NCBI GenBank assembly: GCA_036881805.1
Contig: JBAJNK010000092.1
Coordinates: 1-44,493 of the forward strand
DNA from: Flavobacteriales bacterium
GTDB lineage: Bacteria; Bacteroidota; Bacteroidia; Flavobacteriales; JANQLC01
Reading direction: 5' to 3'
DNA: 44,493 nt
The notes below the pieces were generated by a model. The model saw only the letters and a list, made by a program, of their open reading frames with translations, was not told the DNA's origin and did not search any database. This document shows positions 12,262 through 44,493 of the stretch, one piece after another. Both the position numbers and the translations under genes were made by a program. Numbering within the stretch: position 1 is the stretch's first letter; every line of letters starts with the position of its first letter.

Positions 12262-13281
12262 ATGCGCTCCATGAGTCAGACTACCCCTTTAACCGCTAAG
12301 GATTTTGCCTCGGATCAAACCGTAAAGTGGTGTCCGGGCTGCGGGGATTACGCCGTTTTGAAGCAAGTGCAATCCGTCTTGTCCACGCTGGGTTTAAAGC
12401 GCGAAGAAATCGTATTCGTATCGGGTATCGGCTGCTCGTCGCGCTTCCCCTACTACATGAACACCTACGGCATGCACAGCATTCACGGACGCGCGCCGGC
12501 GGTGGCCACCGGTTTAAAAACCACGCGTCCGGAGCTCAGCGTTTGGGTCGTTACAGGAGACGGTGATGGGCTCTCCATCGGTGGCAATCATTTGATTCAC
12601 CTCTTCCGCCGGAATCCGGATGTGAATGTGCTGCTCTTTAACAACGAGATCTACGGATTGACCAAAGGGCAATTTTCACCGACTTCCAAACCCGGACTAC
12701 ACACCCAATCGTCGCCTTTGGGTTCGATCGGCAAGCCCTTTAATGCGGCGAGTCTCGCACTGGGGGCAGGGGCTACCTTCGTTGCGCGCACCCTCGATCG
12801 CAACCCGCAACACCTGCGCGAGGTATTGCGACAAGCGCATCGACACAAGGGGACTTCGTTTATCGAAATCTATCAGAACTGTCCCGTGTTTAACGACGGT
12901 GCTTTTGAAAAATTCACCGACAAGCGCACCCGAGCGGTACGCGCGCTTTACGCAGAAGCGGGCAAACCCTTGCGATTCGGTGAGCAATCCGAACTCGGGA
13001 TCCGATTGGACGGGCTGAAACCCAAAGTCGTCTCAGCCACTCGCTGCGCAGCCGACGAACTGTGGATACACGACAGCCGGGACAAGGTGAAAGCGCAGCT
13101 CCTGGCAGCATATTTCGAGGTCGAAAAAGACCGCCCACAAGTCTTTGGGGTACTGTATCGGGAAGAACGGCCCACCTATGAAGAACTGCTACAGGCGCAA
13201 ATGCGGGAAGCGATCGCGCGAAAGGGAGCGGGAAATCTGGACGACTTGCTGCTCGGAACGGATTTCTGGGCGGTTACTTAG
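12262..13281 (+). CDS. korB: 2-oxoacid:ferredoxin oxidoreductase beta subunit
   Basis: WCPGCGD, SGIGCSSR, HSIHGR, TPP-binding GDGD...NN..YGLTKGQ.SPT and QNCPVFN motifs. Confidence 0.95.
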   Translation: MRSMSQTTPLTAKDFASDQTVKWCPGCGDYAVLKQVQSVLSTLGLKREEIVFVSGIGCSSRFPYYMNTYGMHSIHGRAPAVATGLKTTRPELSVWVVTGDGDGLSIGGNHLIHLFRRNPDVNVLLFNNEIYGLTKGQFSPTSKPGLHTQSSPLGSIGKPFNAASLALGAGATFVARTLDRNPQHLREVLRQAHRHKGTSFIEIYQNCPVFNDGAFEKFTDKRTRAVRALYAEAGKPLRFGEQSELGIRLDGLKPKVVSATRCAADELWIHDSRDKVKAQLLAAYFEVEKDRPQVFGVLYREERPTYEELLQAQMREAIARKGAGNLDDLLLGTDFWAVT

Positions 13282-16448: not shown

Positions 16449-16591
16449 ATCACAATAATGTGCCAGTTGTGTTTGGCAAATATTTTCCCCCTTTCAAAGC
16501 GCCTACCCATTTTATATTCACCCCATACCCGATATTTTCTATTGGGGGAATGCGCGGTATAACAGATGTTATTTGCGTTTTTATTCGGTTG

Positions 16592-16599
16592 CAAATGTA
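16592..16599 (-). promoter_or_regulatory. -7 promoter box (TACATTTG) for pncA-tag
   Basis: Exact TAnnTTTG about 145 nt upstream of the pncA ATG. Confidence 0.5.
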
Positions 16600-16719
16600 A
16601 GGATTTAATATCGTTTAACCCATTTTCAGCCCTGTTTTAAGTTTGAGCGTTCCGGCATTTTATTCCCACAGCGCATATGGATACCACAGGGTTAGGTGAA
16701 AATCCACTATATTTGCAAC

Positions 16720-30085: not shown

Positions 30086-30109
30086 CAAAAAGAGCGGCCG
30101 CTCTTTTTG
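30086..30109. terminator. Perfect 24-bp palindrome (bidirectional terminator-like)
   Basis: CAAAAAGAGCGGCCGCTCTTTTTG is its own reverse complement, giving a GC stem with T5 on both strands. Confidence 0.6.
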
Positions 30110-30139
30110 AGCTCGATCGATTCGGCTTCCGGATTATAT

Positions 30140-30620
30140 AAAGCCCCTTTTCAAACTGTCAACCGGCAAAAAATAAGGTGGGATATAGGCTATACCCATA
30201 TTGATCGATATCCCGATCAGGCTTTTGCAGCTGCGATACAGCACAGGGGTAAATAGACGAGACCAATCGCTTGGCGGCTTCTTATGACACGGCAGCCTTT
30301 TCAAAAGACCCGCAGGGGCAAAACCAAAGAAGTAAGACAGGCTTTCAAATCAACACTTAGCGGACAAAGCCAAAAGACAACCCGCCTTTTTAATCAACAG
30401 ACGGACAGGGCAAAGAAAATCCCAGTTTTCAAACCGACTTCCACAGGATAAGAGATAGCACGCTTTTCAAAACCACGCACAAGGAATAAACGCTAAAAAA
30501 ACAAGTCCCCTTTTCAGGCGCTCCCCATATGATTGTCAAGGGTATTCCACAGTTACGGAGCCCTGTGACTAAAGCAAAAAAATCCCTTCTTTTGAACCAA
30601 TGCGCACAGACGAATACAAG
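30140..30620 (+). repeat. Degenerate tandem array A (core CCC(G)CTTTTCAAAC, period ~38-47 bp)
   Basis: T-tract cores at about 30148, 30298, 30343, 30387, 30426, 30464, 30511 and 30590, each followed by an A/C-rich then (C)ACAaGGG..AAA segment. Confidence 0.7.
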
Positions 30621-38831: not shown

Positions 38832-39493
38832 CTCAATATATCAGCCGCTTTAAGCAACACATACGCCACTTCGGGTTGCTCGGCCACCACTGTATTGCGG
38901 TGAAAACACGCCAGGTATGCAGCTGTGGTATGCCCGATGGCTATAGCCGTTTGCCTTTCGCTGATGCGGTTTCGCTCCAAAAAACTCTTCACCCCACTCG
39001 GGCTGTAAAATAAAACGACGTCAAAGGGCGTGTCTATCCTTTGCGGTGTGCGTACGGTTTGATACACCGCCACCTCAAACACGCGAATATTCGAGGCGGT
39101 AAGCACAGCCGGAAGGTCGGGTCGACGAAGTCGGCCGCAGAAATAATTCAGTGAATCCAGCCCCTCAACCTTTGCGATTTCCATCGCCAAAGCCTTGGAA
39201 TTCAGGGCGATTAAATCCGGATGTAGGTCGTGCGCAGTCAGGGATAGCGCTGTCCGCTCCCCTACGCAAAACACCCGCTTAAAATCGCTTGGACGCGAGG
39301 TGATCAAAGGCGCCGCGGCTCGCACCGCATTTTGACTGGAGAAGACAGCCGGAATGCCCGCTACCACCAACCCTTCAAAATCCGATGGGGGATAATGCGT
39401 TACACGGATGAAATCGCACTCGATCAGTCGGTGACCCGACAGCAGGGCACGTTGTGATGGGGTTAGTATTTTAGTGGACAGGACGGTGGACAA
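38828..39493 (-). CDS. hemD: Uroporphyrinogen-III synthase
   Basis: VLSTK, FSSQNAV, CVGERT, FCG..RR..LP, VYQT, FYSPSGVKSF and AIG.TTA motifs. Start uncertain; TTG 39493 is more likely than 39544. Confidence 0.9.
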   Translation of the reverse strand: MSTVLSTKILTPSQRALLSGHRLIECDFIRVTHYPPSDFEGLVVAGIPAVFSSQNAVRAAAPLITSRPSDFKRVFCVGERTALSLTAHDLHPDLIALNSKALAMEIAKVEGLDSLNYFCGRLRRPDLPAVLTASNIRVFEVAVYQTVRTPQRIDTPFDVVLFYSPSGVKSFLERNRISERQTAIAIGHTTAAYLACFHRNTVVAEQPEVAYVLLKAADILS

Positions 39494-43195: not shown

Positions 43196-43681
43196 ATGAA
43201 AGTGATCGTCTATACCGATGGCGCCACAAGCGGTAACCCCGGTCCTGGCGGGTATGGCGTCTATATGTTTACCCGAGAAATTAAGCGGTCTAAGCAGCTC
43301 TCCCAAGGGTTTCGGCTCACCACCAACAACCGCATGGAGCTCATGGCCGTTATCGCGGCACTCGAACAGCTCAAGAATCCACCCCAGGATGTTGAATTGC
43401 ACACCGATTCCAAGTACATAAGCGATGCGGTAAACCAGTCTTGGCTGTGGCGCTGGGCAAAGGGAAATTTTAAAGACAAAAAAAATGCGGATTTGTGGCA
43501 CCGGTTTATCCGGCTTTATAAAAAACACCGGGTAAAGATCAATTGGGTGAAAGGCCATGCGGAAAATCCATACAACCAGCACGTAGACGGCTTGGCGGTT
43601 GCCGCTTCCCAAGGAGATGCCCTGCACGTGGATCGCAACTATGAGAAAAGCCATTTTTTCAGGCCGCGCCCACAAGGGTAA
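43196..43681 (+). CDS. rnhA: Ribonuclease HI
   Basis: YTDG...GNPGPGG, TTNNRMEL, TDSKY, N.DLW and WVKGHA...N...D.LA motifs. Confidence 0.97.
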   Translation: MKVIVYTDGATSGNPGPGGYGVYMFTREIKRSKQLSQGFRLTTNNRMELMAVIAALEQLKNPPQDVELHTDSKYISDAVNQSWLWRWAKGNFKDKKNADLWHRFIRLYKKHRVKINWVKGHAENPYNQHVDGLAVAASQGDALHVDRNYEKSHFFRPRPQG

Positions 43682-44200
43682 AAAACGAGTCCCGCTTTTT
43701 AAACTGCCAAACGCGGGAAAAACAAATCCACAAAAGGGTAAAAACAGGGTATAAGACCGACTTTTTAAGCCGACACACGAGGCGAGGACAAAAGACGAGT
43801 GGCGCTTTCAAGTTTCAAGGCTTTACAAAAGATTAGCAGCGCGCACCCACTGTGGACAAAAGCAAAAAACCCCTCTTTTTTCAAACTACCCTATATGGAG
43901 GAAAAACGCTTTTTAAATCATTCTCTAAGGTAAAGAGATAAAGGATAACCCCCGCTTTTCAAACCGACCCCACAAAGAAAAATAATCCTCCAATCGACGC
44001 TAGGAAAAAAACCACAAACGAGACCGGATACTTTTTCAAACACGTCGCAGGTCAAAACCAACAGCAATGGGTATAAGTGCTCAAACGCTCGATCGGACAA
44101 AAATAAAACCCCACTTTCAAGCCACAAGAGGTCAAAGCCAAAAAAGCCCCTTTTTCAAACTGTCACACAGAAAAAAACAAATCCGATTTTTAGGCACCGC
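43645..44200 (+). repeat. Degenerate tandem array B (same family as array A)
   Basis: Cores at about 43656, 43696, 43762, 43806, 43878, 43910, 43956, 44033, 44115, 44152 and 44187. AAAGCCCCTTTT(T)CAAACTGTCA occurs at both 30140 and 44143; TTTTCAAACCGAC occurs at both 30426 and 43956. Confidence 0.72.
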
Positions 44201-44239
44201 GCATCCGAGGCGCGATACAAACCATTCAAGGGGAAAACA

Positions 44240-44493
44240 CTCGGACTTTCCAGTCCAAGAGATCAGGACCCAGATGTCAGTTTGAAATATTACGACCCCC
44301 GTTTTCAGTGCTTTAGCGAGTGGGGACAAAGTGAGTTAAAATCTTTCTCCGCCTTTGTTAAAAAACTGCGCACCACAACTTGGACGGATATTTACAAGAG
44401 CTCTGGAAGTAGCGGAAAAAAGTAGGATTTGGAATGACCTACCACAAGGATATAAAAAAGCTACCCTCATTAGAAGTGACTCAAAAAATAAGC
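44240..44493 (+). pseudogene. Start-less, frameshifted MAG6450/RelE-like protein fragment (runs off the window)
   Basis: VSLKYYDPRFQCFSEWGQSELKSFSAFVKKLRTTTWTDIYKSSG, then a frameshift at A6 (44416-44421), then VGFGMTYHKDIKKLPS. No in-frame ATG upstream; family recognised from memory only. Confidence 0.5.

Follow-up and report, generated by a model that had tools for sequence, protein, structure and literature searches.

Mycobacterial MIRU and pneumococcal BOX elements are intergenic repeats found at tens to about one hundred loci, where head-to-tail units of about 40-100 bp occur in variable number; to our knowledge, neither has an enzyme of its own. STAR elements of Staphylococcus aureus are interspersed intergenic direct repeats whose function, origin and mode of spread are given as unknown in PMC3532100. 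REP elements have been proposed to act either at the DNA level, through supercoiling, or at mRNA ends (PMC3733652). The heptamer TAACTGA forms intergenic direct repeats in Beggiatoaceae, Cyanobacteria, and some Bacteroidetes (PMC4679880).

The locus described here, designated array B, belongs to a family that shares three properties with repeats of the STAR kind: regular direct repetition in one orientation, dispersed intergenic loci, and stable positions with a varying number of units. A full-text search of the literature found no description of such a family in Bacteroidota.

Array B and its surroundings

The window, meaning the whole stretch of 44,493 nucleotides that was analyzed, contains two arrays of this family. 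Their features, and those of the adjoining sequence, are as follows.

30086..30109, no strand assigned: perfect palindrome (12+12) bordered by runs of A and T, on the left margin of array A
30140..30609, + strand: array A, 8 units detected by the nhmmer profile, of the same family and on the same strand as array B
43196..43681, + strand: rnhA (RNase HI; Pfam RNase_H, E 2.4e-36), upstream of array B
43643..44235, + strand: array B, head-to-tail, 10 units detected by the nhmmer profile and, at the 3' end, 1-2 more that have decayed
43902..44154, + strand: multi-unit block in array B, common to two other loci in the same genome
44098..44181, + strand: two consecutive well-preserved units near the family consensus (BLAST)
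44239..44493, + strand: gene remnant outside array B, with its 5' part missing and its frame broken relative to the sister species

A unit profile built from 17 hand-picked units found ten same-strand matches within 43643-44172 (nhmmer), with start-to-start spacings of 66, 44, 54, 34, 46, 76, 83, and 36 bp. The original prediction, made from the letters of the window, had counted about 11-12 units in array B, which agrees with ten detected units and one or two decayed ones, and the measured spacings of 34-83 bp agree with the pattern it described. It had also listed three pairs of strings common to arrays A and B; all were found where it placed them, all on the + strand, and the two arrays do belong to one family and run in the same direction. 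A direct-repeat search found eight repeat families at 43600-44300. Tandem Repeats Finder, with a minimum score of 30, made no call in array A or array B, its silence on array B being explained by units too degenerate for it. The motif CTTTTYAARC, with at most one mismatch, occurs 39 times in the window, compared to 16.7 +/- 3.8 times in 100 dinucleotide shuffles, none of which attains 39. Fourteen of the 39 occurrences sit in arrays A and B, on the + strand without exception.

The first unit of array B overlaps the final codons and the stop codon of rnhA, whose C-terminal tail is unlike that of the sister-species rnhA. At the other end, the array terminates at about 44235; strings resembling units beyond about 44240 belong to the gene remnant. 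This remnant has 79% identity to an intact open frame in the sister species (G001:C15:41193-41448), where the frame comes after a SocA/Panacea-type gene that is missing from the window. Array B itself shows only scattered frames of up to 72 amino acids and no consistent frame, and a small-protein reading of it was rejected on these grounds. Contigs from two sequencing runs cover array B only in part: one has 201 bases, and the long contig ends at 43427.

Array A is flanked by a gene for a tricorn-like protease and by sdhB, both on the - strand. At the orthologous position, the sister species lacks an insert of about 735 bp that holds array A (spacer of 983 bp here vs. 322 bp there), while positions 30291-30448 have 79% identity to a non-orthologous sister-species array. 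A Logan contig of run X1 spans array A with two single-base differences. The palindrome at its left edge is terminator-like in both directions. A single, isolated, perfect sigma-70-like pair lies at 30162-30133.

The repeat unit and its extent in the genome

The genome is a metagenome-derived draft of 1.57 Mb in 106 contigs, estimated as 86% complete. A consensus derived from 436 units describes a non-palindromic unit of about 42 bp, consisting of an A-run, CCCSC, TTTTCAAAC, CG.CACACAGGGA, and a further A-run. The profile finds 1200 matches in the genome vs. 52 after shuffling in 200-bp blocks, and at E<=1 it finds 441 vs. 0. With arrays defined as same-strand runs of profile matches, there are 107 arrays of at least four units, and none in the shuffled control. 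They are 300-1100 bp long and total 45,688 bp (45.7 kb), or 2.9% of the genome. The family is thus dispersed and array-forming, as the original prediction had proposed, and arrays A and B are far from its only members. The condition that the prediction had set for its own refutation, an absence of further arrays elsewhere in the genome, clearly fails.

The commonest core-to-core distances are 42-45 bp, with harmonics close to 84 and 126, and the autocorrelation of AA dinucleotides peaks at 42-44 and 84-86. Individual core spacings range from 30 to 50 bp, so any helical phasing is loose. No A-tract periodicity of 10-11 bp was seen within arrays, and A-tract bending with that period was rejected for this reason.

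Placement and orientation

Genes were called with a crude in-house caller that misses small genes (1092 genes, 76% coverage). By these calls, arrays overlap genes by 0.4% on average, and none by more than 30%. Convergent spacers are favored and divergent ones rarely used: at least three units are present in 37 of the 139 spacers between convergent genes, compared to 34 of 700 between tandem genes and 4 of 147 between divergent genes (odds ratio 7.7, Fisher p 1.6e-14). Within tandem spacers, 22 arrays run along the genes and 12 run opposite to them, which bears out the earlier observation that orientation is independent of transcription. Convergent spacers contain arrays of a single orientation in 36 of 37 cases, and arrays on both strands in the remaining one.

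One suggestion of the original prediction was a polar chromosome-organization signal, which could be a KOPS-like or Chi-like marker of replication direction, or a guide for a translocase. Replichores were inferred per contig from GC3 skew only. At |skew| >= 0.03, the G/T-rich strand of the arrays lies on the inferred leading strand in 44 cases vs. 25 (p 0.03), a weak trend in the direction that such a signal would require, but one that fades to 28 vs. 18 (p 0.18) and then 15 vs. 12 (p 0.70) at stricter cut-offs, in a test that is weak because the assembly consists of 106 contigs. Several contigs hold arrays on both strands. Moreover, known polar motifs are short words that occur throughout genes as well, rather than intergenic arrays. 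The suggestion gained no robust support here, and we consider it highly improbable.

A second suggestion, that of a recombination signal, survives in altered form. Junctions where synteny with the sister species breaks carry arrays more often than other junctions do (12 of 32 vs. 6 of 54; Fisher p 0.006). This excess, which may include misassembly at repeats, fits arrays that serve as substrates for recombination rather than as a signal for it.

RNA structure, promoters, and terminators

Arrays transcribed by read-through might instead act at the RNA level, either as rut-like entry sites for Rho or as a sponge or 3'-UTR platform for a protein that binds single-stranded RNA. The unit strand is rich in A and C and poor in G (A 39%, C 25.5%, G 16%, T 19%), the arrays are situated at gene 3' ends, and a Rho gene is present in a genome where strict terminators are rare, all of which would suit such a role. 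So would a lack of structure: folding is no better than in shuffled sequences, with z-scores of +0.72 and +1.59 for array B and means of +0.13 and +0.15 over 24 arrays, and no hairpins or inverted repeats were found inside units. Each unit also has a motif of the ACA..GGA type, which presumably resembles the sites of some RNA-binding regulators. However, array orientation is not tied to transcription, as the 22 and 12 arrays of tandem spacers show, and since nearly all convergent spacers hold one orientation, an array there could serve just one of its two genes. Array lengths far exceed what such sites need, a search for CsrA (PF02599) found no match in the 86%-complete genome, and promoter motifs are almost absent from the arrays (see below). 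We therefore judge an RNA-level role improbable. A CsrA sponge of the CsrB/RsmZ type was specifically rejected, there being no CsrA match, no excess structure, and no match to Rfam 15, which gave nothing in the window at the gathering score, nothing in 43600-44300 at E<=1, and nothing in locus L081 at E<=0.01.

The -7 motif used in the promoter test, which we take to be the promoter motif of the Bacteroidetes type, occurs at 0.02 and 0.50 per kb in arrays vs. 3.27 per kb upstream of genes. A reading of the arrays as promoter arrays was rejected on this near absence and on the isolation of the one sigma-70-like pair. Terminators with a strict hairpin plus T-run were found in 9 of 116 convergent spacers of at least 40 bp and in 12 of 107 array spacers. 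Being rare genome-wide and no commoner at arrays, they led us to reject a terminator-array reading as well.

Distribution in the sister species and other genomes

The sister species carries the same unit consensus. From its arrays, 38 flanks could be mapped to the genome studied here, and 31 of these adjoin at least three units, 28 of them mostly in the expected orientation. A model of the unit has 208 and 152 matches in the two genomes of the genus vs. 0-10 in 39 other genomes of the order; a second survey gave 49 and 42 for the genus vs. no more than 2 in 149 others from the order; and a survey of the phylum found one match in one genome among 150. In all, sampling of about 300 other Bacteroidota genomes did not reveal the family. 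Among the sampled Bacteroidota, it is restricted to this genome and its sister species.

Plasmid and phage collections gave no match to the family. Metagenome and viral contigs were scanned for a pattern of three cores, and the loci obtained were scored with the unit profile; the best two of at least 236 matched loci (L171 and L186) are unrelated tandem repeats.

Turnover of arrays and the search for an enzyme

Multi-unit blocks recur between arrays. The block at 43902..44154 matches C19:8321-8575 with 84% identity across 256 bp and C73:2143-1936 with 88.5% across 209 bp, and in a three-way alignment the similarity starts abruptly at a unit junction. The two consecutive units at 44098..44181 have BLAST matches of 72-88% identity on 12 other contigs, with 27 such two-unit stretches aligned. 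Genome-wide, there are 77 block pairs of at least 120 bp (120-357 bp, 65-100% identity), 29 of them at 80% identity or above, and 40 of the 107 arrays are involved. The exchange between arrays that the original prediction proposed to look for is thus seen, as blocks of 120-357 bp common to separate loci.

Change is equally clear between the two species. The number of units at the array B locus differs, and only the 3'-terminal decayed units of array B (44141-44235) can be aligned with their counterparts at the end of the orthologous sister-species array, at about 70% identity as estimated by eye; the remainder of array B is not alignable with it. The acpP-rnhA spacer of the sister species has an extra A/C-rich, array-like stretch of 433 bp that is found only there. 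The content of arrays changes rapidly, as units come and go and multi-unit blocks are copied between arrays.

Blocks copied to new loci could reflect a non-autonomous mobile element served by a dedicated enzyme (a REP/RAYT-like transposase, a reverse transcriptase, or a site-specific recombinase), or a decayed CRISPR array. A reverse-transcriptase gene, one of the kinds of co-occurring gene that the original prediction had asked after, is present as a single frame that is apparently truncated, covering profile positions 113-192 of 205. Its neighbors are restriction and nucleotidyltransferase-type genes, a defense-like setting, and it is not regularly adjacent to arrays, so the candidacy of this gene as a driver was rejected. 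In the 86%-complete genome, the Y1 transposase search (PF01797) found nothing, with the control search positive in 6 of 14 reference genomes, and neither Cas1 (PF01867) nor any multi-copy transposase family was found. The 10-base core does match one arm of the Helicobacter pylori dif site, as printed in PMC3325230, but an inverted partner within 4-10 bp of the core exists at a single, incidental-looking site genome-wide, and a relation to Xer/dif was rejected because it would call for the two-arm inverted arrangement. Units have neither hairpin nor inverted repeat, plasmids and phages gave no match, and the 42-bp period, with degenerate repeats and no unique spacers, is unlike CRISPR. Unit scores neither rise nor fall along arrays (Spearman rho 0.002), and growth of a CRISPR-like or leader-proximal type was rejected accordingly. 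An element with its own enzyme, or a decayed CRISPR array, is on this evidence highly improbable. Of the self-propagation first proposed, what stands is the sharing of blocks among several loci and the gain or loss of array A; a dedicated enzyme was not found. Spread probably relies on the machinery of the host.

Probable constraint on the core

In 74 paralogous block pairs, mismatches affect 8.9% of core columns vs. 17.9% elsewhere, and gaps affect 2.0% vs. 6.1%. A neutral simulation with the same ascertainment leads to an expected core mismatch of 12.8%. This is a modest test, and its p-value of 1e-5 is overstated, since the pairs are not independent, BLAST seeding may favor cores, and the mutation model is uniform.

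These values bear on the simplest alternative, in which the family is a neutral or selfish minisatellite with no function, spread by slippage, unequal exchange, and ectopic recombination and tolerated at gene 3' ends, while core conservation stems from ascertainment, biased gene conversion, or recent copying. Degeneracy among units is high: outside the core, those within an array are barely more alike than those in different arrays (identity of 0.405 for adjacent units, 0.401 within the same array, and 0.390 between arrays). Presence or absence of arrays and unit number vary between the two species, and the alignable orthologous units, at about 65-70% identity by eye, are no better conserved than third codon positions (75.8% identity over 7 genes). 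Degeneracy outside the core and the coming and going of arrays are as expected of such a minisatellite. Depletion from divergent, promoter-bearing spacers, orientation tied neither to transcription nor to replication, and the flat unit scores also agree with it. Against it, core mismatch falls below the neutral expectation even when corrected for ascertainment, both species retain the same consensus, and locus and orientation are mostly kept. No expansion of insertion sequences was seen in the genome, and some 3% of non-functional DNA would be unusual for a genome of about 1.6-1.8 Mb without such an expansion. A neutral origin and persistence is a substantial alternative, yet on balance an unlikely one.

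Our preferred reading, to which we give a probability of about 0.5, is that array B is a member of a genus-specific family of interspersed intergenic direct repeats that is spread by host recombination and whose core is a putative binding site. Slippage, unequal exchange, and ectopic gene conversion between arrays, all products of host replication and recombination, would drive both spread and turnover, while a short core (TTTTCAAAC plus the preceding C-run) would be constrained and the rest of the unit would drift. The core is probably a site recognized by a protein on double-stranded DNA, given that the arrays show no RNA structure, no promoter, and no tie to the direction of transcription. 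Putative sites about four helical turns apart might then form multi-site platforms at gene ends.

A stronger form of this reading has the arrays as phased platforms for a sequence-specific DNA-binding protein peculiar to the genus, acting as insulators or chromosome-folding anchors at convergent gene ends, with the core under selection. Where convergent transcription units end, extended nucleoprotein tracts might provide topological or transcriptional insulation and would occupy about 3% of a small genome; selection on the 10-bp core could keep the system in place as the remainder of the unit drifts. We consider this version doubtful.

Implications

Should the preferred reading hold, upwards of 100 arrays of a single motif take up about 3% of the DNA in one Bacteroidota genus with small genomes, and the same gene ends stay occupied in two species while the sequence of the arrays churns. 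Arrays also break short-read assemblies, with at least two units within 300 bp of 45 of 212 contig ends, and they coincide with synteny breaks, so that in this lineage they influence genome structure as well as the quality of genomes derived from metagenomes. The family offers a clean case in which to ask whether selection maintains interspersed direct repeats of the STAR kind or whether they are junk. Its conserved 10-bp core, recurring about every four helical turns, could serve as a concrete bait in the search for a new DNA-binding factor.

Comparison with known systems

BOX modules fold into stable RNA structures, unlike the arrays described here, which show no excess of RNA structure. MIRU units are much better conserved and are linked to operon junctions, whereas the units of this family are very degenerate and prefer convergent spacers. 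A relation in sequence to MIRU or BOX would not be expected. CRISPR arrays share a recurring element of about 25-30 bases, regular spacing, a single orientation, and intergenic location, but this family has degenerate repeats without unique spacers, a period of 42 bp rather than about 60-75 bp, and more than 100 loci, and it shows neither Cas1 nor any polarity of unit quality along arrays.

REP elements and their BIME clusters are likewise high-copy, extragenic, located at gene 3' ends, and often clustered (PMC3733652). REPs, however, are hairpin-forming palindromes that carry a conserved tetranucleotide at the end, usually alternate in orientation, and are accompanied by a RAYT gene, whereas the units here are non-palindromic and all direct, and no Y1 transposase was found. 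The TAACTGA repeats are also abundant, intergenic, and present in Bacteroidetes, with binding sites for a factor proposed in both cases; they are, however, only 7 bp long, come in short runs, and for the most part directly precede start codons (PMC4679880). By comparison, this family has 42-bp units of a different sequence in long arrays at gene 3' ends.

STAR elements come closest. Like this family, they repeat a short conserved sequence in direct orientation, about every 40 bp or at wider intervals and without need of a palindrome, and they occupy many dispersed intergenic loci that grow and shrink but hold their positions within a lineage (PMC3532100). That same source gives the STAR consensus as a GC-rich 14-mer, and by eye the T/A-rich core found here, with its C-run, bears no likeness to it. 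STAR loci are reported to differ between staphylococcal species (PMC3532100), whereas the loci here are largely common to two species, and STAR consists of a repeat plus a locus-specific spacer, whereas a weak consensus extends across the whole unit here. The load is also much above that of STAR, at 107 arrays and 2.9% of a 1.57-Mb assembly, and the phylum differs. The family is best read as STAR/MIRU-like interspersed direct repeats, that is, as a new family within an already known class of bacterial repeats.

Two related arrays on one contig

A run of loosely similar units, all on the + strand, is present where the original prediction placed it (43645-44200), and the three pairs of strings quoted as common to arrays A and B were all found. 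Its limits are less exact: the run is real, but the first unit overlaps the end of rnhA and the 3' end lies near 44235. Each array B unit combines a C-rich patch with a T-run that leads into CAAAC-like letters; it also has a CACA..GG patch and an A-run. The features discussed here are the following.

30140-30609, + strand: array A
43196-43681, + strand: rnhA, encoding RNase HI (Pfam RNase_H)
43643 to about 44235, + strand: array B
44239-44493: gene remnant, 5' part missing, an open frame in the sister species (L092 2668-3476)

A unit profile made from 17 units picked by hand from the two arrays finds ten same-strand hits in 43643-44172 and eight in 30140-30609. The core pattern CTTTTYAARC, allowing one mismatch, occurs 39 times in the window, versus 16.7 +/- 3.8 in shuffled sequence; fourteen of these matches fall within the two arrays, all on the + strand. 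Tandem Repeats Finder reports nothing at the window arrays, and Rfam finds no match in the window or at array B, a result of the units being degenerate and resembling no curated RNA.

The last codons and stop of rnhA lie inside unit 1 of array B (43640-43681). The RNase HI C-terminal tail differs in both sequence and length between this genome and the sister species, the only other genome of the genus, so array B appears to have reshaped the rnhA 3' end. Compared with the sister species, a G/A run in the remnant at 44239-44493 differs in length by one base, which breaks the frame. In that species a SocA/Panacea-type antitoxin-like gene (Pfam E 7e-20), missing at the window locus, precedes the intact counterpart; this partner frame has no Pfam match.

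Array A is spanned by a Logan contig from public run X1 with two single-base differences, and array B is covered in part. Run X1 may be the source sample of the assembly, and therefore gives array A no independent support. Inside the first array A unit, at 30133-30162 (- strand), is a perfect sigma-70-type hexamer pair (12/12 positions, 18-base spacer) aimed at a tricorn-like protease gene, probably irrelevant in a Bacteroidota promoter context. Region 30146-30245 includes about 50 bp of inserted sequence that is not a unit and carries a short inverted repeat. Insert and flanking units recur at two other arrays, C87 5196-5295 and C61 13393-13492 (80% and 75% identity), and the insert may itself be a further small repeat carried within the arrays.

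Genome-wide extent and the repeat unit

The window is an entire contig of a draft genome of 1,571,425 bp (106 contigs, 48% G+C, 86% completeness). Compared with a control in which every 200-bp block of the genome was shuffled, the unit profile gives 1200 hits versus 52 at E<=50, and 441 versus 0 at E<=1. The absence of further arrays would have spoken against the original prediction; defining an array as at least four same-strand hits no more than 120 bp apart, we found 107, and none in the control. The largest has 20 units across 1.1 kb. Together they cover 45,688 bp, or 2.9% of the assembly, with a unit-strand composition of 39% A, 25.5% C, 16% G, and 19% T. At least two units occur inside 300 bp of 45 of the 212 contig ends; the repeat family is therefore a main cause of the fragmented assembly, and the true repeat load is probably above 2.9%. 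One of the most regular arrays (C60 120-960, locus L357; 14 units) abuts an apparent tRNA gene on the - strand, judged by eye, from about position 850 onward.

From 436 units (E<=1) we obtain the consensus A-run, CCCSC, TTTT, C, AAA, CC, G, n, C, a, C, A, C, A, GGG, a, n, A-run, and 81 units from the sister species give the same consensus. Core-to-core distances peak at 42-45 bp (291 spacings within 34-49), and harmonics at about 84 and 126 bp imply that the period persists across many unit slots whose core is gone. AA dinucleotide autocorrelation peaks at 42-44 and 84-86 bp, with no 10-11 bp peak in the arrays. Outside the core, units are about 40% identical whether adjacent (0.405), within one array (0.401), or between arrays (0.390).

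Gene context and orientation

Our crude in-house gene caller yields 1092 genes covering 76% of the DNA, and arrays overlap called genes by a mean of 0.4%. Spacers holding at least three units number 37 of 139 between convergent genes, 34 of 700 between tandem genes, and 4 of 147 between divergent ones (convergent versus other, odds ratio 7.7, p 1.6e-14). A single array orientation is found in 36 of the 37 convergent spacers. Arrays in tandem spacers run along the genes in 22 cases and against them in 12, so orientation is unlinked to transcription, as had been proposed from arrays A and B. This missing preference is the main difficulty for a role at the RNA level, in which an A/C-rich transcript would act in a rut-like or sponge-like manner; the array composition suits such a role, which we consider unlikely. 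A polar signal, also proposed originally, is very improbable: orientation against replichore, estimated contig by contig from GC3 skew in a draft assembly, splits 44:25, 28:18, and 15:12 at rising stringency, with no robust polarity, although fragmentation makes this a weak test.

Several specific readings were rejected. Structured RNA fails, with fold z-scores of +0.72 and +1.59 for array B, no better than shuffles, and means of +0.13 and +0.15 for 24 other arrays. The units lack inverted repeats, excluding hairpin repeats, and the arrays are not coding. Promoter arrays are rejected by the -7 motif, which we take to be the Bacteroidetes-type promoter motif, at 0.02 and 0.50 per kb on the array strands versus 3.27 upstream of genes. 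Nor are the arrays obviously terminators: strict hairpin-plus-T-run sites, rare genome-wide, occur in 12 of 107 array spacers. CRISPR is rejected (no unique spacers, Cas1 not found in the genome, no polarity of unit quality), as are REP/RAYT and a CsrA sponge (neither a Y1 transposase nor CsrA found in the 86%-complete genome). In sequence the core exactly matches an arm of the H. pylori dif site shown in PMC3325230, but the inverted partner needed for a dif-like site is missing.

Distribution and comparison with the sister species

The best named relatives of the window's RNase R share 48-55% identity with it and all come from Bacteroidota, except one assembly labeled Acidimicrobiia. A sequence-only covariance model from 18 window units gives 208 matches in this genome, 152 in the sister species, and 0-10 in 39 further genomes of the order. 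That order, which includes complete genomes of 0.3 and 0.6 Mb, is probably Flavobacteriales. Under stricter filters 49 and 42 matches remain in the first two genomes, respectively, and none of 149 others, drawn from 18 families, has more than 2; a phylum-wide sample of 150 genomes has one match in one genome. Isolated matches in other families are single sites without arrays. Plasmid and phage collections contain nothing resembling the unit, and pattern scans of metagenome and viral sequence were swamped by unrelated repeats. A 43-bp tandem repeat on GC-rich metagenome contig L171 (300-1250), in which a strong hairpin encloses a TTTTCAA loop, was judged unrelated. The direct repeats of the arrays, about 42 bp in period, thus form an interspersed, intergenic family specific to the genus.

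The two species share 91%, 93%, and 76% identity at codon positions 1, 2, and 3 (seven orthologous genes). A 385-kb sample of the sister genome holds 24 arrays. Of 38 array flanks mapped to this genome, not mutually independent, 31 adjoin at least three units, and at 28 of these the units are mostly in the expected orientation; ten further flanks were unmappable. Thus the arrays mostly predate the divergence of these species, but have not kept their content. Downstream of rnhA the sister species has only about eight decayed units, of which only the last align with array B (roughly 70%, by eye), and the insert of about 735 bp holding array A is absent from the orthologous spacer (322 bp versus 983 bp here).

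The acpP-rnhA spacer, a divergent one, is 433 bp in the sister species (L092 1068-1500; C15 ~39040-39473) versus 115 bp here. It is A/C-rich and weakly array-like, and resembles an array that has decayed, unusually placed on the promoter side. Beside another array, a noncoding stretch of about 180 bases (C37 ~12380-12560, L081 ~1222-1402; L339 ~16480-16660) is roughly 95% identical between species by eye, whereas the array next to it can hardly be aligned. The stretch matches nothing in Rfam at E<=0.01 and could be a small RNA or leader.

Block copying and apparent constraint on the core

Array B 43902-44154 matches C19:8321-8575 (84%) and C73:2143-1936 (88.5%), the similarity beginning exactly at a unit junction, and array A 30291-30448 shares 79% identity with an array of the sister species that is not its ortholog. 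Genome-wide, 77 block pairs of at least 120 bp involve 40 of the 107 arrays; the 29 pairs with at least 80% identity exceed the third-codon-position identity between species. The loci are long-lived, their content changes fast, and blocks move between them. In the sister-species sample, arrays lie at 12 of 32 synteny-break junctions away from contig ends versus 6 of 54 collinear ones (Fisher p 0.006); they may be rearrangement breakpoints, or misassembly sites in either draft.

A dedicated mobile element, which block movement might suggest, has very little probability. The genome has no multi-copy transposase family, its only five-member protein families being TonB-dependent receptors and LRR proteins. 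The one reverse-transcriptase match, apparently truncated (C41 3100-4660; L335 838-2393, - strand), is a 313-aa frame that aligns with the RVT_1 profile only at positions 113-192 of 205. A 197-aa frame without Pfam match lies before it, and HSDR_N and NTase_sub_bind genes (restriction- and nucleotidyltransferase-type) flank it. The reverse transcriptase may be split or decayed, and of defence type.

In 74 paralogous block pairs chosen for reliable alignment, columns with an intact core in either copy mismatch at 8.9% (1326 sites) versus 17.9% elsewhere (9522 sites); simulated neutrally under identical ascertainment, the core figure would be 12.8%. Gaps affect 2.0% of core columns versus 6.1% elsewhere. 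Since the block pairs are not independent, the nominal p of 1e-5 overstates the significance. The direction of the difference suggests that the core is under selection, or subject to biased repair. The main rival is a minisatellite, purely neutral or selfish, that the genome tolerates at gene 3' ends. It agrees with the scarcity of arrays in divergent spacers and sits less well with the low mismatch rate of the core; we hold it possible, though the less probable account. We favor, at a rough probability of 0.5, a direct-repeat family that would spread through host replication and recombination, with no dedicated enzyme, and whose conserved core is a putative protein-binding site. A role at the DNA level is proposed because RNA structure and promoters are absent, orientation is independent of transcription, and the spacing is near four helical turns.

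Relation to known repeats

Our full-text searches of the published literature found no description of this family. MIRU and BOX are more distant analogues. REP/BIME (PMC3733652) and TAACTGA heptamer repeats (PMC4679880) are likewise more distant than STAR. By analogy, the staphylococcal STAR element comes closest among known kinds: PMC3532100 describes interspersed intergenic direct repeats of a 14-bp consensus, spaced at least 40 bp apart, whose loci expand and contract and whose function and spread are there called unknown. The present family would work alike without being homologous; unlike STAR, it belongs to another phylum and is far more abundant per genome size.
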